Virus record (IMG/VR): IMGVR_UViG_3300011008_000004
Location: 96,001 to 160,000 of that record
Reading direction: 5' to 3' (one strand)
DNA: 64,000 nt
From: a virus
Lineage: Duplodnaviria; Caudoviricetes
Shown here: positions 3,286-16,076 of the stretch, one piece after another
Position numbering within the stretch: position 1 is the first letter of the stretch
Layout: each line of letters begins with the position of its first letter
Translations under genes and position numbers: made by a program
Notes under the pieces: generated by a model
Told to the model about the DNA's origin: nothing
Database searches by the model: none
What the model saw: the letters and a program-made list of their open reading frames with translations, nothing else

Positions 3286-4296
3286 TTAATCCTCATTAGT
3301 CATTTCTAAAAGAATCATTCTAATAAATACTTCAGCATTACTAGAAGTTACATTCTTTCTACATTCAAACAATCTTGTAGCAAACTTAGTTAAAAATTCT
3401 AACTTATCTTTATAAAGTTTATCTTCATAACTACGTGGAATATTTACACAATTTATGCTATAAGTTTTATCATATATTGCATACTCTATAACAAACGATA
3501 ACAGTGAATCATAAACTTGAACTAAATCATTACTTATAGATTTTAACTGTTCTAATTCATTTAAACTTTTTGTTATATCTTTATTTAATAAATTATTAAC
3601 TATTTCTAATAAAGATGCTTCTTTAACTAAACCTAAAACCTTTTCAATGCTATCTAAAGTTAAATCATTCGAATAATCTAAACATTTATCTAAATCAGTT
3701 ATAGCATCTCTCATATAACCATCAGCTTTAATCGCTATTCTATCTAAAGCTTCTCTTTCATACTTACTATGAGTTATTTCATTACAAATATATTCTAACT
3801 TATCAGCTATTGTTTTAGTATCAATTCTCTTAAAATCAAACCTTTGAACTCTTGATAAAATAGTTCCAGGAATTTTATCAGGATTTGTAGTACATAAAAT
3901 AAATACTGCATGTTTAGGCGGTTCTTCCAACAGCTTTAATGCTGCATTCCACGCAGCGCTTGTCATCATGTGACATTCATCTATGACATAAACTTTATAC
4001 TTACAATCAATCGCCATTTGTTGCGAATCTGAAATTAAAGTTCTAATGCAATCTACGCCATTGTTAGATGCAGCATCAATCTCTATAACATGACCTTCAT
4101 TATCATTCAAACTGTTTGCAAAAACTCTAGCTGTAGTTGTTTTACCACAACCATGAGCTCCACAAAATAAATATGCATGTTTTATCTTCTTAGTCGCTGT
4201 TTGTCTAGATAATATACTAACTATAGATTCTTGACCAACAATTTCTGCAAATGATTTAGGTCTTAATAATGTTGCTAATGTATCGTTACTCATCAA
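3286..4296 (-). CDS. dnaX: DNA polymerase III gamma/tau-like clamp-loader ATPase
   Basis: LRPKSFAEIVGQE, GAHGCGKTT, EIDAASNNGVD, VIDECHM, LKLLEEPP, TILSRVQRF, GYMRDA. Confidence 0.92.
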   Translation of the reverse strand: MMSNDTLATLLRPKSFAEIVGQESIVSILSRQTATKKIKHAYLFCGAHGCGKTTTARVFANSLNDNEGHVIEIDAASNNGVDCIRTLISDSQQMAIDCKYKVYVIDECHMMTSAAWNAALKLLEEPPKHAVFILCTTNPDKIPGTILSRVQRFDFKRIDTKTIADKLEYICNEITHSKYEREALDRIAIKADGYMRDAITDLDKCLDYSNDLTLDSIEKVLGLVKEASLLEIVNNLLNKDITKSLNELEQLKSISNDLVQVYDSLLSFVIEYAIYDKTYSINCVNIPRSYEDKLYKDKLEFLTKFATRLFECRKNVTSSNAEVFIRMILLEMTNED

Positions 4297-4320
4297 TTAC
4301 CTCTGATTTATTTTACAAAA

Positions 4321-4680
4321 TCATTTTGTTATTGTTACACATTTTTTAATAATCCAACCAGTCCAGTTATTGCTTGTAGAGTCATACAAGTCAACTAGAA
4401 GCATCTTCTCAGTTTCCTTTAATATCTTACCATACATCACTAAACTTGGGGGTGGATTACCTCCATTCCATTGTTTATGAAAATCGAATGAAGGCGATGG
4501 ATGTATAAACCAGTCTACAAACTCAAACTTAGTATCTAAAACTGGCTTATCATCTCTATTATATTGTTTCATAAATACAATTTCTTTAAAATCATTTGGA
4601 ATAGTGGTTGATACTTTTCCATCAACTTTAAATTCTAAATTAGTACACTTTTGAAGTTGTTCTTTTAATATATCATTCAT
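4321..4680 (-). CDS. Hypothetical protein
   Basis: 119-aa ORF overlapping the HD-domain gene stop. Confidence 0.6.
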   Translation of the reverse strand: MNDILKEQLQKCTNLEFKVDGKVSTTIPNDFKEIVFMKQYNRDDKPVLDTKFEFVDWFIHPSPSFDFHKQWNGGNPPPSLVMYGKILKETEKMLLVDLYDSTSNNWTGWIIKKCVTITK

Positions 4681-5296
4681 TCTTCAATATTTTACTCTCA
4701 TCAAATGCAGTTGCTTGCATATCACTTTGTGCAAGTAATAACGCTAATGGGCATCTTTCATATGCTGTTAAAACATTCTTAGGCGTAAATACATCTGTCG
4801 ATACATCTATGCCATTCATGTGATACAATACTGCAATTTCTTCCTCATAAGTAAGATTAATAAATTGCTTTATCATATAAACTGAATTCTCTGAATGACT
4901 ACCATAAAACAATCTTTCTTCATCAGGTTTAACACCGTAATAATCTACTTTTATCCAATTACCATCTTCATCTTTAGTGTTTCTCTGTTCAAGACTATAA
5001 AAATTTACTTTAGATAAATCATGAAGTAGTGATACTAAAGCAATTGTTTCTTGAGAATATGGACTATGTTCTAAATCACCGTATTCATATTTAATCATTC
5101 TAATAAGTCTATTAAACACATTTAAACTATGTTGAACTAAACCACCTTTTTCATTTAAATGAAATTTAGTACTAGCTGGGGCTTCTTTCATATCAGATTT
5201 ATCTAACCAAGCTAATAATTTATCTATACCTGGTCTGTTAACATATTTAGATAAATAGTTCTTAAATTTCGTATAATTATTTTCAAAATCTATCAT
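4673..5296 (-). CDS. HD-domain phosphohydrolase
   Basis: APASTKFH, GGLVQHSLNV, LLHDLSK, H...YHM, SD motifs. Confidence 0.85.
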   Translation of the reverse strand: MIDFENNYTKFKNYLSKYVNRPGIDKLLAWLDKSDMKEAPASTKFHLNEKGGLVQHSLNVFNRLIRMIKYEYGDLEHSPYSQETIALVSLLHDLSKVNFYSLEQRNTKDEDGNWIKVDYYGVKPDEERLFYGSHSENSVYMIKQFINLTYEEEIAVLYHMNGIDVSTDVFTPKNVLTAYERCPLALLLAQSDMQATAFDESKILKNE

Positions 5297-5307
5297 AATA
5301 ACCTCTT

Positions 5308-5652
5308 TTATAAACTAAGCATTTTAGTTTTAATTTTTCTACGTTTAACTAATGTTCTCTTATATAAAGCTCTATCATTTGCAGTAATATTATTTACACC
5401 AGTATGCAAGCCACTTCTAGTTGCATTGAATATAGTCTTCCAATTAGGAACTACATTATACTTCACACAACATTCACTAACATTAAATCTTTGTGCAAGA
5501 GCTTGAACTGATAAACCTTTACTATAAAGTTTTAACATCTTCTTACGATCCTTATCAGTTAAAACTCTCTTTCTGTCATAATTAGTACCTTGAATCTTTA
5601 CAATTTTATCAATAACTGTATTACTTAACTTTAAAACTTGTCGTCTTTTCAT
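5308..5652 (-). CDS. Basic helix-turn-helix DNA-binding protein
   Basis: GLSVQALAQRFNVSECCV HTH pattern; preceded by its own sigma70-type promoter. Confidence 0.65.
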   Translation of the reverse strand: MKRRQVLKLSNTVIDKIVKIQGTNYDRKRVLTDKDRKKMLKLYSKGLSVQALAQRFNVSECCVKYNVVPNWKTIFNATRSGLHTGVNNITANDRALYKRTLVKRRKIKTKMLSL

Positions 5653-5670
5653 ATCTTTTACCTCTAATCC

Positions 5671-5700
5671 ATAATATCATACCCCAAACAAATATGTCAA
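5671..5700 (-). promoter_or_regulatory. sigma70-type promoter with extended -10
   Basis: TTGACA-18 nt-TATTAT, with TG at the extended position. Confidence 0.6.
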
Positions 5701-5841
5701 TTACTTCTCATCTTTCTTTTCATCTGTTATAGTTATGGGTGTACTATTATCGTAGTAATTTTTATCATAACTATTATTCACATCAATAGCGAATAATGCG
5801 ATAAATACAGTTAAAACTACCATTAAAATATATCTAATCAT
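5701..5841 (-). CDS. Small single-pass membrane/secreted protein (46 aa)
   Basis: MIRYILMVVLTVFIALFAIDVNN... with a GAGG RBS; below the ORF-track length cut-off. Confidence 0.55.
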   Translation of the reverse strand: MIRYILMVVLTVFIALFAIDVNNSYDKNYYDNSTPITITDEKKDEK

Positions 5842-5867
5842 CTTATTTTACCTCTTAAAAATATACA

Positions 5868-5900
5868 AAAAGAGAATTCCTCATTTGAAGAATTCTCTTT
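5868..5900 (-). terminator. Intrinsic terminator
   Basis: AAAGAGAATTC...GAATTCTCTTT inverted repeat with a U-tract on the minus strand. Confidence 0.7.
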
Positions 5901-5906
5901 AAATTT

Positions 5907-6296
5907 TTACTTATTATTTAAATATTCTAATAATTCTTTAAACAAATATTCATCTATAATATAATGATTTTCATTATAAGGTGCATCCGGTCCAAAATTA
6001 AAAACAACCGCTTGATGCTCTTTATTGCAAAATATCATTTCATTACGATTCTTTTCAAACCATTCTCTCTTTATAGATATTGAATCCGAATTAGAAGTTT
6101 TTGTTTTGCATTCTATTAAAAAGCTTTCAGCGCCCTTTGTTGTAACATCACCTTTGCCGGAAAACATTGTGGCTCCCGAATTTGCAGTAGTTCTACCACC
6201 TACAGTTTTAGCTACATAATCTTCTTGTCTTTTAGAATAATATCTAGTAGGCTTCTTCTCGTCTTTAAATGAATATTTTTCAAACTTTCCAGCCAT
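5907..6296 (-). CDS. PD-(D/E)XK nuclease, Holliday-junction-resolvase-like
   Basis: NSGAT..KGDV...FLIECKT motif; directly downstream of recA. Confidence 0.7.
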   Translation of the reverse strand: MAGKFEKYSFKDEKKPTRYYSKRQEDYVAKTVGGRTTANSGATMFSGKGDVTTKGAESFLIECKTKTSNSDSISIKREWFEKNRNEMIFCNKEHQAVVFNFGPDAPYNENHYIIDEYLFKELLEYLNNK

Positions 6297-6299
6297 TAA

Positions 6300-7595
6300 T
6301 TATTCTGACTCCCTAGAAACCATAACAGCCGTTTCTTCATCCATTACAGTTATCCTTTCTTGCTTATTAATTTCTTCAGCTTCTTTTAAGGTTAAAGATA
6401 CACCTTGGTCTTCTTTTTGAATAGCTGCAGCAGTTTCTGCATCTAACAAGTTGCCAGAGAATTCAGATGAAGAAGATAACTTTTCATTTAACGCTAATGT
6501 ATACTTTTCAGTAAATTCTTTATGAGATTTGAAATATTGATATAAATCATCTTTCTTACCACGTAAATCATTACCATTTTCATCTTTCATTAATAGTTTA
6601 GTGTTAGGATCTAAAACTTCATACGTTACATTATTAAGTCTATTTATCATGTTAAACTTAGTGGCAATATTGAACATATCTTTAGTCACGTCCATATACG
6701 CTTGTTTACCTGTTTCATCAAACATATAAGTAATAAAACCACCACCACGAGTCGTAGGAGCTGTTTTATTTTTTAAGAAACTAAACTGAATTCTATAACC
6801 TGATGCGCCTTGTCCAGTTGCTGCATTCTTTTCTTGACCGGCTTTAGTAGAATTAGCTAATTCTTCACCATTTTCATCTAAGAATTTTCTCTTACCAAAT
6901 CTAATTCTCACACTTGCGTAGAACTTTATAGCATCACCACAAGGTTCATCTAAAATATCAGCGCCTGTAAACGTCTTACCTTTAATTCTAGTTTGGTTGA
7001 TAAGCATTAAATCAATGTCATTAGCTGCAATAGTAGGAATCATTTCACGTTGCCACTTATATAAGAACTTAGCGAGTGTTCCTCTCATACCATTGTCTTT
7101 TTCAAACTCATTTTCATAGTCAATAGAAGGAACTAATGCAGGAATAGAATCCACTATAATTAACGATATATCTGAAATACTATTAGCCATATCTAAAAGT
7201 GTACCTAAAACTAATTCACCAGATTCACCAACATCAGGTCTATATAAATAAACTTTGTCTGGATCAAAATTATTAGCTTTAGCATGATACTCAACATCGT
7301 ATGTGCTTTCAATATCTGCATATAAAATAGACTTATCTGGGAAATTTCTTTGATAGTCTGCAATTATAGCGCTTACACCAGATGTTTTTCCGGTGGAGTT
7401 TAAACCTGATACCTCTATAATTCTACCTTTATGTGGAATACCACCCCAAGTAGGATAAGCAATTCCAGGACATAAACTTTTAATTCTAGTATATTGCGGA
7501 ATTAAACTTGATTTTTGTAAAATATTTTCATTTTTTCTTGTTTTTGCAAATTGTTTAGCATAATCTGCAAATGTCATTTTAACTTTTTCAGCCAT
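6300..7595 (-). CDS. recA: RecA/UvsX-like recombinase
   Basis: GGIPHKGRIIEVSGLNSTGKT, IIVDSIPAL, INQTR, GDAIKFYASVR, KNKTAP. Start at MAEKV behind GGAG. Confidence 0.92.
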   Translation of the reverse strand: MAEKVKMTFADYAKQFAKTRKNENILQKSSLIPQYTRIKSLCPGIAYPTWGGIPHKGRIIEVSGLNSTGKTSGVSAIIADYQRNFPDKSILYADIESTYDVEYHAKANNFDPDKVYLYRPDVGESGELVLGTLLDMANSISDISLIIVDSIPALVPSIDYENEFEKDNGMRGTLAKFLYKWQREMIPTIAANDIDLMLINQTRIKGKTFTGADILDEPCGDAIKFYASVRIRFGKRKFLDENGEELANSTKAGQEKNAATGQGASGYRIQFSFLKNKTAPTTRGGGFITYMFDETGKQAYMDVTKDMFNIATKFNMINRLNNVTYEVLDPNTKLLMKDENGNDLRGKKDDLYQYFKSHKEFTEKYTLALNEKLSSSSEFSGNLLDAETAAAIQKEDQGVSLTLKEAEEINKQERITVMDEETAVMVSRESE

Positions 7596-7603
7596 ATATC
7601 TCC

Positions 7604-8107
7604 TCACTGATCTTCATAATTATCAGTTAACTTTCTATCGCTTGCTCTAGAAATTAGAATACTCTTTAAAGAATCTACAACTCTATGAGCTTCATCTAAC
7701 TTTGTTTTTATTTGACTTGCTATTAATTTGTACAACTTAGCTACAGCTTTATCCTTACTCGCAGATAAAATTGCGGTATTTTTTCTTTGTTCGTTATTAC
7801 CTTCAGCTGTATTAAATGCATCTGCCTGTGTTTCATCTTGAACAATTTCAGCTATTTCAGATGCTATATTAGTTTTATCTTTTATATCGCCTAAATCATA
7901 AGCTTTTAAAGATAATTGTAATTCAGCTCGTCTAATATCTTCATTAGTCAGTTCGTTTATATTATCATTTAAATATTTTATAAGTTCATCTATAGATTTA
8001 GTGTAGCCTTTAACAATATCTTTCGCTTGTGAATTTAAACTATTATATATTGTTTGAATATCACTCATACCGGTAGATAAATCATTACTTAAATTGTTTA
8101 TATCCAT
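7604..8107 (-). CDS. Helical hypothetical protein, possible recombination mediator
   Basis: 167-aa coiled-coil-like ORF directly upstream of recA; the function is inferred only from position. Confidence 0.5.
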   Translation of the reverse strand: MDINNLSNDLSTGMSDIQTIYNSLNSQAKDIVKGYTKSIDELIKYLNDNINELTNEDIRRAELQLSLKAYDLGDIKDKTNIASEIAEIVQDETQADAFNTAEGNNEQRKNTAILSASKDKAVAKLYKLIASQIKTKLDEAHRVVDSLKSILISRASDRKLTDNYEDQ

Positions 8108-8164
8108 AAACTCCTCTCAAAATATCATTTTACTTATATATTTATACAAAAAATGATAAAATAA

Positions 8165-8192
8165 AAGCACTAAGAAATTAATCTTAGTGCTT
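8165..8192 (-). terminator. Intrinsic terminator
   Basis: AAGCACTAAGA-AATTAA-TCTTAGTGCTT hairpin. Confidence 0.7.
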
Positions 8193-8211
8193 AAAATTTA
8201 ATTACATTTAA

Positions 8212-8814
8212 TTACTTTATAACTTCATAAACATCTTCATCTGCATAGGCTTCAAACCACTTATGCGCATAACTCCCTTCATATACTACGGCTCTTAAAC
8301 TAGTTACATCTTCAAAAGCATCACCGTCTATAAACTTAACACTTCTAGGAATAGCTATTTTATCACCAAGATCACAATAAGCAAATGCGCCTTGTTCTAT
8401 ACGCTCTACACCTTCATCTATAATAATGGTTTTTAACGATTCACATCCACTAAAAGCATAAGACCCGATAATTTTCACAGTGCCAGGTATATGTACTTTT
8501 TCTAAGTTTTCACACATCCAAAAACAACCCCAACCTATCTCAGTTATGTTTTCAGGAAATGTTCCTACCTCACCTAGCATCTTATCATTGTAATAATAGT
8601 ATTGAGGTAACGATGTTATATGAGACATTACATCTATATCTGCTTTATTTAATATATTCACCAATGCTTGCATAAAGTGTGCCTGCATTTCTTCATCAAC
8701 TTCATCAGTAAATGATACAACATTTTCAAATAGTTTATCGAAATTATTAGCGTTTAAAGCTTTTATATTTTCTTCATCACTTAAAAATTTATCAACTATA
8801 TCATATATAATCAT
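8212..8814 (-). CDS. BspA-type leucine-rich-repeat (LRR_5) protein
   Basis: Repeats IPGTVKIIGSYAFSGCESL, IDEGVERIEQGAFAYC, IPRSVKFIDGDAF. Confidence 0.85.
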   Translation of the reverse strand: MIIYDIVDKFLSDEENIKALNANNFDKLFENVVSFTDEVDEEMQAHFMQALVNILNKADIDVMSHITSLPQYYYYNDKMLGEVGTFPENITEIGWGCFWMCENLEKVHIPGTVKIIGSYAFSGCESLKTIIIDEGVERIEQGAFAYCDLGDKIAIPRSVKFIDGDAFEDVTSLRAVVYEGSYAHKWFEAYADEDVYEVIK

Positions 8815-10020: not shown

Positions 10021-11160
10021 TCAAATCTTATCATCTATAAGAATTTCAGGAATAAGCTGAACTAAACCTTCACCACTATTTATCGCTAAAGCAGGGGTTG
10101 TACCATATGAAACATCTAACGTTTTAGAATTCATAGCTTTTAGTTGTTTCATTAAATCTGAAAATCTAATAATAGATTCATGTTCAAATGCATTTTCACT
10201 CGATATATAAGGAATTCTTTCAAAATTCTTATTCGTTATAGATACGAACTGGACTTCATTCTCCTTAAATACAAGTTTAGAATATAGCATTACTTCTATA
10301 CCAAACTTCTTATCGAAAACCATCAATCTTGCTAATGCTTTATCTACTGCTTTTTTATCTAATATAACATGTGTTACATGAGATACAGATGCTAATTTTC
10401 TTAATCTTATTGATGGATATGTGTCAGTTAATGCTTGACTTTGAATAACTAAAACTAAACTTATATTATTTGCCTTAAATTTAATTTTACTAGCATAATC
10501 ATAATTAGCTGATGAATCAATCATCAACTCAACTTCATCTATACTATTGAATACTTCTAATAGCTTTGCTTGTGTTACATTTAATAATATCTTAAAATCT
10601 TTATTTCCAAGTCTCTTAAATGTATTTACATATAAATTTTCAGTATAAGTTAAAGCACCTTCTTGATCCACATAAATAAATTGCTGAATTTCATTAGAAA
10701 ATACTGAATCTACGAAACCTTTAGTATTTATAGTCGCAACTGAAGACAGATCATTACCACTTAAAATGATATTATCTACTGTGTCTCTAAATTTAATAAC
10801 ATCTACGGATTTTACATCATCTAATTCCTTTATAATTGGAAATGTAAATTCACTGTTAGAAGTTTTAAATATTAAAGCGTTCATTCTCTCAAACATTTCA
10901 ACGTAGTCATCATCTAACTTTGCAACTAATGGGACAAAAGTATCAGATACTATAGTCGCATGAATTTTATCAGAATTATCACACTCAATTGGAATTACTG
11001 CTTCTAAATAATAATCATAGTTAGATACTTTTAATGTCATCGTATTATCTTCAAATGATTCTAATTCTATCCAACCAGACTTAGGATTTAACTTAGTTTT
11101 CTCTATAGCTAAATTCATTTTAGCTACTATATTTTTTAATTCTGTTATGTTAACTTTCAT
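10021..11160 (-). CDS. DNA polymerase III beta-like sliding clamp
   Basis: 379-aa size, N-terminus MKVNITELKNIV.., three-domain periodicity, located next to polA and a clamp loader. Confidence 0.65.
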   Translation of the reverse strand: MKVNITELKNIVAKMNLAIEKTKLNPKSGWIELESFEDNTMTLKVSNYDYYLEAVIPIECDNSDKIHATIVSDTFVPLVAKLDDDYVEMFERMNALIFKTSNSEFTFPIIKELDDVKSVDVIKFRDTVDNIILSGNDLSSVATINTKGFVDSVFSNEIQQFIYVDQEGALTYTENLYVNTFKRLGNKDFKILLNVTQAKLLEVFNSIDEVELMIDSSANYDYASKIKFKANNISLVLVIQSQALTDTYPSIRLRKLASVSHVTHVILDKKAVDKALARLMVFDKKFGIEVMLYSKLVFKENEVQFVSITNKNFERIPYISSENAFEHESIIRFSDLMKQLKAMNSKTLDVSYGTTPALAINSGEGLVQLIPEILIDDKI

Positions 11161-11179
11161 AATTATCTATACAAATTCC

Positions 11180-12055
11180 TTACACTTCGTCTCTTAATAG
11201 ATCATACGTTCCATCACAAAACTTATCTAAAATTTCATCACTAAATTCTTCATGTTCTGCTTTAACTTCTGCTATTGCTTGTTCTCTAGTTTTACCGTCT
11301 TTTTCAATAGCTGTTGAAATATACTCTTGAATTTCATTCAACATTTCATCCGCATACCATCTCTTTAAGATATATGGATCTGTAACAAATGGAACGTCGA
11401 CCTCAGGCTTAGCTGCATTAGACATTAAATAAGCCAATCTTTCAGAAACTTTTTCAGCGTTTTCTACAGGACATTCTCCTAATAATTCATCATGCACAGG
11501 AATTAGTAATTTATAACCAAGATCATTTATTTCTTTATCTTTAAAAATATTAACCATCGCTTTCTTAGTTAAAGATGCTGCACTTCCTTGAATTCTAGCA
11601 TTCGTACATTGTGTCATTGTTTTTGAAATAAATGCGCCATTATCTAAAACGTCAACTCCATTTTCTTTAGCTAATTCTTTAAACTTAGTTTTAGTCTTAA
11701 AACCTTTACCAGCATAGTTAGTATTATATTCATTAGTCCATCTAGCTGTAGCTTCTTTATCTTCAACTTCTAAAAATACATCTTTAGCTTGACAATCTAA
11801 AAACAGATCACAATTAGTACTCACTTTCTTTTTAGCTGTTACTTTAACTTCCGGTAAATTTGCATCAGGTAAGTGTCTACGTCTACCCATATAATCTTCA
11901 ACATAACCTTGTTCTTTAGCAGCTATAGCATTGCCATCTGTAAATTCTTTTATTTTAGGAAACTTTTCATAAAAATTTTTAAGTATTTCTTGGCATTCTT
12001 CATATGAAACCTTTAATTGTTGTGACATAAGATTAGCGCCCATGCCATACATAAT
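11180..12055 (-). CDS. polA: Family A DNA polymerase, final exon (motif B end and motif C)
   Basis: IMYGMG, GYVEDYMGRRRHLP, NARIQGSAA, PVHDELL. Confidence 0.9.
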   Translation of the reverse strand: MMYGMGANLMSQQLKVSYEECQEILKNFYEKFPKIKEFTDGNAIAAKEQGYVEDYMGRRRHLPDANLPEVKVTAKKKVSTNCDLFLDCQAKDVFLEVEDKEATARWTNEYNTNYAGKGFKTKTKFKELAKENGVDVLDNGAFISKTMTQCTNARIQGSAASLTKKAMVNIFKDKEINDLGYKLLIPVHDELLGECPVENAEKVSERLAYLMSNAAKPEVDVPFVTDPYILKRWYADEMLNEIQEYISTAIEKDGKTREQAIAEVKAEHEEFSDEILDKFCDGTYDLLRDEV

Positions 12056-12168
12056 CGTTTTATTTTAATATTTCTATTAAACCAGACTATCTCATAATCC
12101 TATATTTAGGATTTTACGCACTTCGATTAGTAACAATCTCTAATCTACACACATGTCTGTGTTAGTCG

Positions 12169-13005
12169 TTACACTTTATCTATGAATTTCCACTTAAAAC
12201 CATAAGCGTGTTTTGCTTTACCTTTACACACAGCTGATATAGCTTTAGCTGATGCTAAGCTAACAGCTATCTTATGTTCAACCAAATATTTAGAAGCCTA
12301 TGTCATAGATTTAAATGTCATTAAAATCTAATTATTTGATCTATCAATCATTGCAACTGATTTACTATTCTTATCTGAAATAATATCTCTAGTATGCTAA
12401 GAATGATGTTTATTAAAGAATGAATTGCGTTCACCCACACGTTGTGAAGCTAATATGCTTAACTTTTCATTCTTTACGCCACTATTCAATCTAGATCTAG
12501 ATCTATTAGTACACTTCTTTAATCCCTTATTAGGCGAAATTCTTCCTTTCAATTTGTTAGATATTTCTAAATTAGATTCATACTAATGATCTAAATTAGC
12601 CTAAAATTGTTTACTACATTCATATGCTTTCTAATATAATTCTAAATCAATATCATCTATATTAAAATCTTGTAAAGACTTACCATGTAATATATAGCGT
12701 ATAGATAAAATATTTTTAGATATATCATCATTAGATTTACTACATAATGCTAAAAAATAATGTGATTTTATATGATCTTTATATAATAAATTCACTAAAT
12801 TATTTTCAGAATTGTCTACATCTAAATTATTAGATATGAAATAATATTTGGGAATTATGTGATGCTAGTTATGTCTATAAGATTCATAATTAGTATCAAT
12901 GTTACTAATAATTAAATTTACATATTCATTTAAGTATTCATTATCAATAAATATATTAGTTTGCAATAATTTGTGTTTTAAGATATCAAAATTTATGTTA
13001 TTCAT
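12169..13005 (-). CDS. Intron-encoded HNH homing endonuclease with NUMOD-type DNA-binding repeats (278 aa, TAG=Gln)
   Basis: HN[TAG]HHIIPK...NLVNL..KDHIKSH; RNSFFNKHHS; C-terminal AVCKGKAKHAYGFKWKF. At least 7 in-frame TAGs; AGGAG RBS. Absent from the ORF track. Confidence 0.82.
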
Positions 13006-13018
13006 ACACTCTCCTGTA

Positions 13019-13027
13019 TAATTTAGC
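13019..13027 (-). promoter_or_regulatory. GCTAAATTA late-promoter-like motif inside the intron, upstream of the HNH gene
   Basis: GCTAAATTA-TAC-AGGAG-AGTGT-ATG. Confidence 0.7.
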
Positions 13028-13245
13028 TAGGTATTGTGTATGTTAACATACATAAATCTTAGCACGGTATTATCTGCTATCCAATCGCTGGACCGTAGAA
13101 TCTCTTACGAAGCTTATTCGCACAAAGTCTTAGTTCACTTCTACCGTTAGCAACTATCACTAGTTACACCTCTTTGTAATCAGAGTTCACGTAATTATTC
13201 GATACACATCACTGTGTAAAGGGGCATTATATAACCTTTCAGTCT

Positions 13246-13511
13246 ACCCAACATTAAAGTTTTACCCTTTTTTCTTAATTGTTTTCCTGCAAAGTTAGGA
13301 GAACCATCTTCCCAATGTTCCATACATTCCCAATAATCTTTATGGACTGCTGGTGCATATATAGTTGCATATGGGTCACGTTTCTCTTCAAATGTTCTTC
13401 TCAATTCTGGATCTTGAGAAAGATGAGTGAATAACCGTGGTTCTTGCGCTGACTTCAGGAAAAGTCTCCTCCCACAATTGAATAATTAATTCGTGTTCTT
13501 AGACTTCTCAT
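13246..13511 (-). CDS. polA: Family A DNA polymerase C-terminal subunit, first exon (motif A to motif B), interrupted by 8 extra nt at 13450-13457
   Basis: Strong RBS AAGGAGGTG, then MRSLRTRINYSIVGGDFS-TGA. In the -1/+2 frame it continues SAQEPRLFTHLSQD...RKKGKTLMLG. Confidence 0.8.
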
Positions 13512-13632
13512 TAGCATCACCTCCTTTAGTACCCTCTTGGCACCATCTAATATTTTAATATCTACAAAATGAATACTCACTTTATAGGTAATTCTACTAA
13601 ATTGTATATATTTTCTTATCTTTCTTTAAATT

Positions 13633-13794
13633 TTATACCTTTTGTTTATACGTAAGCAAAGCTTTTACAGATTCTTCATTATATCTATATTTACCATTTA
13701 TATTAGAATCTATTTTTATCAAACCTTGTTTTACATACTTATACAATGTAGGCTTGCTTATCTTCAACAAATTCATCACTTCTTTTGCTTTCAT
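13633..13794 (-). CDS. Small MerR/excisionase-type HTH protein (53 aa) between the polA halves
   Basis: MKAKEVMNLLKISKPTLYKYVKQGLIKIDSNINGKYRYNEESV; its ATG overlaps the polA-N TGA (ATGA). Confidence 0.7.
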   Translation of the reverse strand: MKAKEVMNLLKISKPTLYKYVKQGLIKIDSNINGKYRYNEESVKALLTYKQKV

Positions 13795-15347
13795 GCTACG
13801 TCCTCTAAGGTTAATTTTATTTTATTTTCTAAAACTTCTACTTTAGTTACCTTATAAAACTCATCATCACTTCCAGTGATAATATCATTTTCTTTTATAT
13901 CTTTTATTCTAACCCATTTATTGTTACACATTACATCTACATAATCATTTAAAATTATTTCATTAGAATCTTCTATATTCTCATCTTTATATTCCGTAGA
14001 TGCTTTAAACATCATTCTCATTGAAGTTTCATGTGAAGGAATCTGTTGTAGATTTGGATTAGTTGAACTAAATCTCCCTGTTCTTACGTTATTATCTTCT
14101 GCACCCATTTGATTAAAGTTAGCATGAAGTTTGCCATCTTTTTCAGAAATACAATTTGGAAGAGATTTAGTAAATGTTTTCATTAAAATACTAAAGTGTC
14201 TATAATCTAATAACGCTTTTGTAAATGGGTGATCTATCGCTTTTAACGCTGCTTTATCAGTAGACTTATTTTCATCTAATGGTTTTATCTTTAATATATC
14301 ATATAAAACTATTTTAAGTTGAACTGGACTTTCATAATTTATTGGATCATCTAATTGTCCTAATGATCTATAACTATCTAACTCTTTCTTATATGGGGCT
14401 AATATTTCATTCATCTTATTAGATGCTTTTTCTAAACCTTTAGTATACTTATCATCTAAACGTTTAACATAATCTACGTCAAGACAAATTCCATCATCTT
14501 CCATTTTAGATGTTACTAAAACTATTGGGACTTCTACTTCACTAAATAACTTGTATAATTTTTCACAGCCCTTCTGCTTAAATAACTCTTCTTGATATTG
14601 TTGTAATTTATAAGTATCAAAAGCATCAATAGCTGCATATAATGCAAATATTTCAGGATCGACCCAAGCATAAGGTAAACCAGTAAATAATTTTTCAATA
14701 TTGTATGAACCAATTGTAGGATCTATATGGGTTTTATATTGAAACTTCAATTTAGCTTGTTCATTTTCATTCATCATTTGAGCTGCTATCATTGTGTCCC
14801 ACCATATTGGAAGATATACACCCATAGTGTTAAAACAAACTCGTATATCAAATTTCCCATTATGATATATCATTTTAGTATTATTATCTTTTAATTTTTG
14901 AAATACTTCCTTTACGCACTCATCTGATACTTGATCTTTTAATCTTTCGTCTGTTCCAGGAACACAGTGATTCATTGGAACATATACTGGTTTTGTATTT
15001 GGAAGATACATACACAAACCCATTAACTTACAAGTTAGTGGATCCAAACTATTATTAGTTTCTGTATCGAATGACAAATAATCTACTGCAATGGCTCTAT
15101 CTATATACTCTCGTAATTCATCATCAGTCCTTATAACCTTAACAAAGTTTTTATATCTTCCTAAAATTTTATAAACTTCTTTTGAGATATAATCGAGTCT
15201 ATCTTCTAGTGGCATACTAGAGATAGACTCTTTCTTTTTAACAGCATGAGTTTTGCCAAGTTTTATAAGTTGAAGACGAATAGCGTCATTATTTATAACA
15301 GGAACTTCAAAATCATCTAGCAATGAAGCTTTTCTAAATTCCGCCAT
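13791..15347 (-). CDS. polA: Family A DNA polymerase N-terminal subunit (3'-5' exonuclease and thumb) with a Hint-like C-terminal tail
   Basis: FDTET, HNGKFD and YAAIDA exonuclease motifs; RTGRFSSTNPNLQQIP; ends before motif A. Confidence 0.9.
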   Translation of the reverse strand: MAEFRKASLLDDFEVPVINNDAIRLQLIKLGKTHAVKKKESISSMPLEDRLDYISKEVYKILGRYKNFVKVIRTDDELREYIDRAIAVDYLSFDTETNNSLDPLTCKLMGLCMYLPNTKPVYVPMNHCVPGTDERLKDQVSDECVKEVFQKLKDNNTKMIYHNGKFDIRVCFNTMGVYLPIWWDTMIAAQMMNENEQAKLKFQYKTHIDPTIGSYNIEKLFTGLPYAWVDPEIFALYAAIDAFDTYKLQQYQEELFKQKGCEKLYKLFSEVEVPIVLVTSKMEDDGICLDVDYVKRLDDKYTKGLEKASNKMNEILAPYKKELDSYRSLGQLDDPINYESPVQLKIVLYDILKIKPLDENKSTDKAALKAIDHPFTKALLDYRHFSILMKTFTKSLPNCISEKDGKLHANFNQMGAEDNNVRTGRFSSTNPNLQQIPSHETSMRMMFKASTEYKDENIEDSNEIILNDYVDVMCNNKWVRIKDIKENDIITGSDDEFYKVTKVEVLENKIKLTLEDVA

Positions 15348-15365
15348 ATTGTCTCCTTATATCTA

Positions 15366-16076
15366 TTAAACTTTTCTTGGTTTTATACAAGCATCCATAA
15401 ATGGATCGTCATCATCTACTATTGTAGATTTAACTTCTTCTTTTGGTTGCTCTTCTTGTTTAATAGTTTCTACAAAATCAGAATGACTCGTATTAGCTTT
15501 TACATCATCTTTATTAGATTCTTTTTCAGCCTGTTTCTTTTTTAAGTATTCTTCTTTAGGAATGTAGTTTGAAACATGCTTTGGCATTTCACCAGTCTTT
15601 AAAAACTGTTTAAGCTCATCTACACTTCTTGTAAGATAGAATCTATAAGCTAACTTGTTGTCTATTAAAGATTCGTCTACAGGTGCATAATTTTTAGCAT
15701 TCAAGATATCAACACTATACTTAGGAAACTCTTTACCTTTACGTGTAATTCTAACAACACATTCACTAATATTTCCCCAATCTTTTTCAATTTCTGAAAA
15801 TTGAGTAAGAATCTTATCAGTTCTACACCAAATCTTTTCTTTCTCATCAGCATAATCAAAAAGATGTACGAATATCTTTTTAGCGGGTTGTTTCTCATCA
15901 CTACATATGGGACATCCATCACCTGCACACTTAACCATTTTAGGTTTGCCATTAACTTCTACTTTATGAATCATTACTGATTCAATTGTTTCAACTTTAC
16001 TATGTAATACTCTTACAATAGCTGAATCACCATCGTTGTTTAAGTTGAAAAATTCAATTTGTCTATTCTCTTCCAT
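15366..16076 (-). CDS. Single-stranded DNA-binding protein (gp32-like)
   Basis: FFNLNNDGDSAIVR, C-x4-CPIC zinc motif, acidic C-terminus DDDDPF; lies between primase and polymerase. Confidence 0.7.
   Translation of the reverse strand: MEENRQIEFFNLNNDGDSAIVRVLHSKVETIESVMIHKVEVNGKPKMVKCAGDGCPICSDEKQPAKKIFVHLFDYADEKEKIWCRTDKILTQFSEIEKDWGNISECVVRITRKGKEFPKYSVDILNAKNYAPVDESLIDNKLAYRFYLTRSVDELKQFLKTGEMPKHVSNYIPKEEYLKKKQAEKESNKDDVKANTSHSDFVETIKQEEQPKEEVKSTIVDDDDPFMDACIKPRKV

Follow-up and report, generated by a model that had tools for sequence, protein, structure and literature searches.

The stretch of DNA analysed here, hereafter the window, comprises 64,000 nucleotides (nt), positions 96,001 to 160,000 of the IMG/VR virus record IMGVR_UViG_3300011008_000004, and carries on its minus strand a family A DNA polymerase gene, polA, which is divided into two cistrons, polA-N and polA-C, with a tail of non-polymerase residues appended at the point of division. 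The record is the genome of a gut phage, 214,257 bp long with direct terminal repeats and rated complete. A six-frame search of this genome returned no family B polymerase and no Pol III alpha, and its sole family A matches are the pieces of the split polA (PF01612, PF00476), which is the only DNA polymerase of the genome. The 3'-5' exonuclease and polymerase motifs A, B and C are all present across these pieces, and, as the only polymerase of a complete genome with its catalytic motifs intact, polA should be functional.

Organization of the polA locus

polA-N is an open reading frame (ORF) of 518 amino acids (aa; 15347..13791, minus strand, as are all window features given below). The Pfam domains DNA_pol_A_exo1 and DNA_pol_A match it up to residue 452, and it covers, besides the 3'-5' exonuclease domain, positions 1-150 of the Pfam model for family A polymerases. 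Its polymerase part (13998..15347), which according to ORF, Pfam and collinearity evidence includes the exonuclease, the thumb and the beginning of the palm, closes at MFKAS (Ser codon 14000-13998); up to this point it runs collinear with two polymerases encoded in one piece, those of Clostridium phage phiCTP1 and Streptococcus phage Dp-1. Beyond MFKAS the frame continues for 68 residues (13997..13794) that have no counterpart in the phiCTP1 or Dp-1 polymerases and that form a 68-codon open frame within DNA of 30% G+C, and it ends in a TGA (13791..13793) that overlaps the ATG of the next ORF (ATGA).

polA-C begins at an ATG at 13511, 6 nt behind a strong ribosome-binding site (RBS; AAGGAGGTG, 13518..13526), and encodes a leader of nine residues, MRSLRTRIN, with a net charge of +3 (13485..13511), followed by YSIVGGDFS (13458..13484), the motif A strand with the catalytic Asp, which aligns with VIVGGDFS of unsplit relatives. 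The homologous leaders of four relatives (L014, L024, L028 and L029) continue directly into motif A, and because the second cistron reads straight through in these loci, the leader ATG is taken as the true start of the C chain. In the window, the leader ORF is closed after 18 codons by a TGA (13457-13455), and the polymerase frame restarts 8 nt downstream in a different frame, at SAQEPR, without a start codon of its own. The coding gap consists of this TGA and a further AG (13453..13457). Comparison with relatives indicates that an 8-nt skip from TCC, the last codon of YSIVGGDFS and the putative take-off codon, to the landing codon TCA gives DFSAQEPR, and motif A is complete only once these 8 nt are skipped. 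The middle exon (13246..13452) leads from the landing TCA to the first half of motif B (...KTLMLG), which is separated from IMYGMG about 207 nt past the landing codon by an intron-like insert of 1190 nt (12056..13245). The last exon (11180..12055), assigned by ORF, Pfam and collinearity, completes motif B with IMYGMG and encodes the fingers as well as motif C (PVHDELL). Once 8 nt are skipped and the intron is taken out, the predicted polA-C product has 377 aa, versus 376-378 aa in uninterrupted relatives.

An earlier interpretation made from the letters of the window (the sequence-only reading) had correctly described, at the positions it gave, a strong RBS and a short basic leader before motif A; it lacked the ORF between the cistrons, the stop after 18 codons with its 8-nt gap, and the motif B insert. 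Its proposal of two polypeptides stands as far as the separate chains are concerned, most tails ending in TAA, and is incomplete in that the C chain also needs the 8-nt bypass and the removal of an intron.

The tail of polA-N

An AlphaFold2 model of the tail, built from an 18-row alignment, predicts that its last 55 residues form a six-stranded beta domain with a predicted local distance difference test score (pLDDT) of about 90, preceded by a disordered acidic linker (TEYKDENIEDSN, 13962..13997; pLDDT <50 at model residues 9-18) in which a T.Y.D pattern is conserved in the family. In a structure search independent of Foldseek over 48,161 PDB chains, the six best neighbours were all inteins (Prp8, PI-SceI domain I, MchDnaB-1, gp41-1, Pho PolII and VMA1), matched with Z of 5.3-6.2 and root-mean-square deviations of 1.8-2.3 A over 47-56 residues, from intein residue 1 and within model residues 21-76. 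Furthermore, when the tail alignment was compared by hhalign with the N-termini of twelve genuine inteins, the probability was 96% (E 4e-9). A profile built from seven tails, searched against 1.84 billion representative proteins at E <= 1e-3, matched 61 proteins, and among about 50 of these that were checked by sequence or Pfam, about 28 were PolA-N ends (MF.A. followed by a tail) and about 14 were genuine Hint or intein proteins; of the nine long non-PolA matches examined, eight have a Hint or intein domain in Pfam. All these data indicate that the last ~55 residues of the tail (13794..13961) are the N-terminal half of a Hint fold, as fold prediction, structure search and profile comparison agree. 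The Hint likeness proposed by the sequence-only reading is therefore sustained by genuine Hint proteins among the profile matches, by hhalign and by the six top structures, and not by Foldseek of the tail model against the PDB, which gave nothing at E <= 0.001 and had inteins solely among its weak matches. Additionally, a PDB sequence search with the tail profile gave weak OB-fold matches only (E 0.025), and a word-based protein search with the tail found the query itself and nothing else. A search of longer proteins with the tail returned only unsplit polymerases bearing an unrelated intein near motif C, so that no full intein is known at the site of the tail.

Both hhalign and the structural alignment place intein residue 1 at an Ile of the window tail (codon 13955-13953), and this column is variable across the family (I, K, S, D, E, T, L and others). 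The S/C/T column that is conserved in the family, occupied by Val in the window, corresponds to residue 6 of block A and not to residue 1. The tail ends about 55 residues past the position-1 equivalent, short of block B (Thr-x-x-His), and contains no His at all in the window. On the other chain, the leader ends in Ile-Asn followed by Tyr, with no block G and no C-terminal His-Asn plus Cys/Ser/Thr, and the position of its Asn is E, K, R, Q or T in relatives. Tail and leader together amount to about 65 residues, versus about 130 or more for a complete Hint fold, and only the N-terminal half is present. The tail is predicted to be unable to splice because neither a nucleophile at position 1 nor the His of block B is present, and a C-terminal His-Asn is lacking too. 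In this respect the sequence-only reading, which had seen neither an N-terminal Cys nor a terminal His-Asn-(C/S/T) and regarded the module as non-splicing, was right, as no catalytic residues remain.

The about 70 non-polymerase residues that the same reading had noticed past MFKAS, 68 by our count, are conserved in relatives. The ratio of non-synonymous to synonymous substitution rates (dN/dS) is 0.04-0.46 in the tail versus 0.01-0.19 in the polymerase core, and because it is below 1 the tail appears to be kept by selection. In addition, the acidic N part and basic C part that had been remarked on in the window extend to the whole family, with a net charge of -4 to -10 in 20/20 tails and of +2 to +5 in 12/12 leaders. 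A further candidate for the true motif A strand, IILNDY of the tail, would imply an intron reaching from IILNDY to the landing codon; we dropped it because its Asp is not conserved in the family and IVGGD[FY]S of the second cistron is invariant.

Split and unsplit relatives

Twenty related loci or contigs were collected from IMG/VR, metagenome contigs and assemblies; a megablast search of the region against the phage collection gave no match. polA is unsplit in six of them (L009, L011, L013, L016, L017 and L018), which read MFKAS-PGY-VIVGGDF-SQQEPR, as expected from the earlier remark that only a few residues normally stand between R.MF.A and motif A. The other 14 are split at the same point, each with a homologous tail, a short basic leader or both. 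DNA was read for 12 of the 14; L027 ends inside a GIY-YIG gene located between the cistrons, and the P0023 contig was available as a gene table only. Tail and basic leader are both retained in every split form seen, and lineages with identities of 40-90% share the architecture. The usual stop codon of the tail is TAA, still a stop in a phage that reads TAG as sense, and the TAG that ends the tail of L010 leads, when read as sense, out of frame with the leader; for these two reasons the two chains appear to be made separately. Fusion of the cistrons through TAG read-through was rejected on the same grounds, the tails ending mostly in TAA or TGA.

A maximum likelihood tree built on residues 1-450 contains two short-branched sister pairs, L006/L011 and L010/L013, both supported at 100/99, and each pair unites a split polymerase (named first) with an unsplit one. 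The DNA of L006 aligns collinearly with that of L011, at about 81% nucleotide identity, save for a clean 311-nt extra in L006, which is inserted after the KAS Ser codon and before the Tyr codon of PGY. This insertion point does not look like an intein site because there is no Cys, Ser or Thr at +1.

The content of the slot between the cistrons differs among relatives. In the window it holds a 53-aa HTH_17 (excisionase/MerR-like) ORF (13633..13794; Pfam HTH_17 E 2.4e-11, and PHROG excisionase families), whose ATG overlaps the polA-N stop codon. L007 (3609-3887) and L008 (1232-1510) share a conserved 92-aa ORF with a P-loop-like GKRGSGKT, L012 and L027 have a GIY-YIG endonuclease, L002 has a LAGLIDADG endonuclease broken by a TAA stop, L025 has a Vsr-like endonuclease, and the slot is empty in L005, L010, L015, L024, L028 and L029. 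Counting those in or adjoining the cassette, four different types of endonuclease occur among the relatives. This pattern reads as that of a homing-type cassette gained, decaying and lost, and the Hint fragment probably travelled with it. The sequence-only reading had instead interpreted the tail as a fossil split intein. The occurrence of split and unsplit sister taxa and the differing slot endonucleases lead us to favour a mobile cassette over the fossil of a resident split intein, which is probably wrong also in view of the mere ~55 Hint residues, the leader without block G and the missing Cys, Ser or Thr at +1.

As separate observations, PolA-N of L025 also carries a genuine mini-intein at GRFS|C...HN|C-TNPNL, and the distant split relative L024 (1032-3843) requires TGA=Trp for both of its chains, with nine in-frame TGAs. 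Because of the latter requirement, the split architecture appears to span phages of at least two recodings.

Interruptions of motif A and motif B

An interruption inside the codons of motif A is present in the window and in nine relatives. It reads TCC TGA AG TCA in the window (13450-13460), TCT TAG TCT in L005 (3369-3377), L010 and L015, TCT TAG GAA TCT in L006 (5691-5702), TCT TAG GAG TCA in L012, TCT TAA CGA TCT in L007 (3992-4003) and TCG TAG TTG in L002; in L008 it reads GAA T GAA and lies at a different site, two codons on (about 1625-1640). In all gap alleles a stop follows the take-off codon directly and the same or a near-cognate codon stands 4-9 nt downstream, and resuming past this landing codon yields D[FY]S[AQ]QEPR with the canonical Asp-to-Glu spacing. 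The window, L007 and L008 are 88-90% identical in the next exon and have gaps of 8, 9 and 4 nt, respectively, because of which translation of the gap is excluded for these three. Stop read-through was likewise ruled out for the window (8 nt), L008 (4 nt) and L007 (TAA). A pattern scan of IMG/VR DNA over a narrow gap range returned the gap allele of L005 alone. Hairpins of 6-7 bp can be drawn with the take-off codon in the loop and the gap as 3' arm, namely GACUUU-UCCU-GAAGUC in the window (13447-13470) and GAGACUA-CUCU-UAGUCUC in L005 (about 3360-3380) and L010; whole-window z-scores for hairpins were not significant. Such hairpins could be a bypass signal or a snap-back repair scar. We are inclined, with some reservation, to regard the motif A gap as a short programmed ribosomal hop. 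In L025, exactly this gap site (DYS|QQEPR) is occupied by a 1-kb insert whose GIY-YIG gene is broken into two ORFs; this insert and the L025 mini-intein are covered by 4001-5950 and 7340-8395.

The insert in motif B is preceded by T and has G as its last base. ORF-less forms of 293-337 nt occupy the same site in L006, L007 and L010, and an alignment of the motif B inserts contains 23 base pairs with compensatory changes as well as the conserved core elements. Rfam detected no family on the whole window at gathering thresholds, in 11000-15500 at E up to 10, or in four related loci. The insert is probably a group I intron nonetheless, as its pairing pattern suggests. It holds an HNH endonuclease ORF (13065..12169) with eight in-frame TAGs, which is intact only when TAG is read as sense. 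In this regard, the genome has two tRNA genes with anticodon CUA (genome 2606-2680 and 163136-163233), because of which the phage is regarded as TAG-recoded, and reading TAG as sense increases long-ORF length genome-wide by 28%, versus 14% for TGA. Its hosts are probable low-G+C bacteria. In L002 (1069-1333), an ORF-less insert of about 260 nt between NPNL and QNIPS may be another small intron.

Origin and assembly of the split polymerase

We consider it likely that a mobile cassette fractured polA and left it with a Hint-half tail and two separately translated chains. A cassette of the homing-endonuclease type would have cut polA between MFKAS and the Tyr that opens the motif A strand, supplying the upstream chain with a 68-residue acidic C-terminal extension, whose last ~55 residues are the putative Hint N-half, and the downstream chain with an RBS, an ATG and a nine-residue basic N-terminal extension. 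The two chains would be translated apart and, because the Hint half has no splicing residue at all, would have to assemble non-covalently into one family A polymerase with a palm built from both. Production of the C chain would further require two steps, the first most likely an 8-nt ribosomal hop in which the take-off codon TCC, the 18th of the ORF, is left for TCA across TGA-AG, and the second the removal of the motif B intron. The proposed role of tail and leader, that they hold the chains together, is possible; when the 76-aa tail of L014 was modelled as a complex with residues 1-110 of the L014 C chain, the score was 0.23 (mark 0.32), which favours neither binding nor its absence.

Several observations count against this interpretation. 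A structural Z of about 6 is middling by the search tool's own scale, and Pfam Hom_end_hint matched only two of the seven tails, weakly (best E 6e-4), and not that of the window. The tree interleaves split and unsplit forms and cannot separate gain from loss, and the window slot holds the HTH_17 ORF and no endonuclease, so mobility is deduced from relatives. Non-covalent assembly is something that we infer, and the hop is read from the DNA alone. Short hops measured in Escherichia coli are inefficient, and in relatives whose gap begins with TAG a suppressor tRNA could instead read through it, adding two or three residues.

The tail may, on the other hand, have nothing to do with holding the chains, being a tolerated remnant of the cassette or a contact with clamp, helicase or DNA, with the halves associating through their shared palm alone. 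A break within the palm leaves a large native interface between the halves, as is known from the Klenow and Taq structures. The tail also evolves faster than the core (dN/dS ~0.4 versus 0.01-0.19; between the window and L007, 51% versus 87-90% identity), and the halves of split Aeh1 NrdA reportedly remained bound after removal of their extensions, as described in bioRxiv 10.1101/2022.08.31.505936. Tail and basic leader are nevertheless kept in every split form, with opposite charges family-wide, and a tail dN/dS below 1 denotes selection, so that this explanation seems unlikely, if by no means far-fetched. That tail and leader form a working split intein and trans-splice the chains into one polymerase would suit a fold and profile like those of intein N-termini, and a layout like that of the 'fractured genes', in which a free-standing endonuclease accompanies split inteins (PMC2677866). 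It is extremely improbable all the same, since a Cys1-equivalent nucleophile and the block B His are absent, the nine-residue leader has no His-Asn and is followed by Tyr, both pieces make up about half of a minimal Hint fold, and a stop codon and frame change intervene 18 codons into the C chain.

Group I introns are frequent in phage polymerase genes, and one sits 240 nt downstream in polA itself, which would favour 13997..13485 being an intron removed from the mRNA, with PolA made as one chain. Yet the tail is coding sequence under purifying selection that is predicted to fold as a domain, the leader has its own strong RBS, Rfam was empty even at E 10, and in L005, L010, L015, L024, L028 and L029 only 0-50 nt lie between the tail stop and the leader start, leaving no room for a ribozyme core; we give this possibility next to no weight. 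Finally, the split, the stop after DFS and the motif B insert could all be lesions of a pseudogene or a defective genome variant, given three interruptions within about 2 kb of one gene and a stop that no standard rule can read. Decay of this kind is quite improbable for the sole polymerase of a complete 214-kb genome, the more so as the exons are otherwise free of lesions, the catalytic motifs are kept, and the architecture persists in lineages 40-90% identical with a core dN/dS of 0.01-0.19.

The mobile cassette thus being preferred, we propose tentatively, as an idea that may well prove wrong, that it represents a second, independent 'fracture-and-bypass' family, in which an endonuclease cassette splits the family A polymerase, a dead half-intein and a basic leader help the chains to assemble, and a hopped gap of 4-9 nt in motif A shields the DNA from the endonuclease. 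To our knowledge, only a few endonuclease-split genes with function-restoring tails have been found (T4 topoisomerase, Aeh1 NrdA and gp43 of T4-like phages). The polA loci would add a further and widespread case, with about 28 checked protein clusters, now in a family A polymerase. Moreover, a family A polymerase that occurs naturally as two chains, with the break directly ahead of motif A, could serve split-enzyme design. In addition, the tail suggests a new fate for an intein, its N-terminal half being retained as an ordinary folded appendage after the splicing chemistry was lost.

Comparison with known systems

The closest parallel is the T4 gene 39/mobA/gene 60 arrangement (Bonocora et al. 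2011, as cited), in which, according to the account in bioRxiv 10.1101/2022.08.31.505936, an essential gene is split and bears cassette-encoded extensions. In T4 gene 60, according to that account, a coding gap soon after the start of ORF2 protects the DNA from the MobA endonuclease; the mobA type is presented there as a decay series with endonucleases decayed, lost or replaced by GIY-YIG or Vsr enzymes, together with near-identical relatives without the cassette and forms with the split and tails and no gap. polA resembles this arrangement in being a replication enzyme encoded in two ORFs, with a C-terminal extension on ORF1 and an N-terminal one on ORF2, and in having, shortly past the ORF2 start, a take-off codon that is followed by a stop and a landing codon that matches it. 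Furthermore, cassette-free close relatives, decay, loss or replacement of the endonuclease and gap-free split forms are each seen in PolA. The two differ in the host gene (a topoisomerase in T4, a family A polymerase here) and in the gap, which is 50 nt long and 46 codons in for T4, as opposed to 4-9 nt and 18-22 codons in for polA. The C-terminal extension of polA is apparently Hint-derived, and the N-terminal one has 8-13 residues instead of about 45 in T4. Moreover, the polA phage is TAG-recoded with probable low-G+C hosts, and its bypass is predicted from sequence. By gap length and host gene, we therefore treat the polA cassette as an analogue and not a member of the T4 mobA type. If the 8-nt gap is truly bypassed, the gene 60 family would lose its standing as the sole case of cassette-linked programmed bypassing.

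The 'fractured genes' (Dassa et al. 2009, PMC2677866) share with polA an N part joined to a Hint N-fragment, an endonuclease gene and a C part with its own start, and Vsr-like and GIY-YIG endonucleases are among the slot occupants. They differ in that their inteins keep the catalytic blocks and trans-splice, whereas the putative Hint piece of polA has about 55 residues, without nucleophile or block B, and lacks a recognisable C-intein and a Cys, Ser or Thr at +1. Aeh1 NrdA (mobE) and the split gp43 of T4-like phages, as portrayed in PMC2677866 and bioRxiv 10.1101/2022.08.31.505936, are similar in being intein-less, endonuclease-split, active two-chain enzymes with new terminal extensions; they differ from polA in the host genes, in extensions that are not Hint-derived and in having no coding gap. 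For the split polymerases of MEP401-type OM43 phages, compared by description only, that description (PMC10580990) mentions no Hint tail, leader or gap. In genome annotation, standard gene callers will give polA as fragments.

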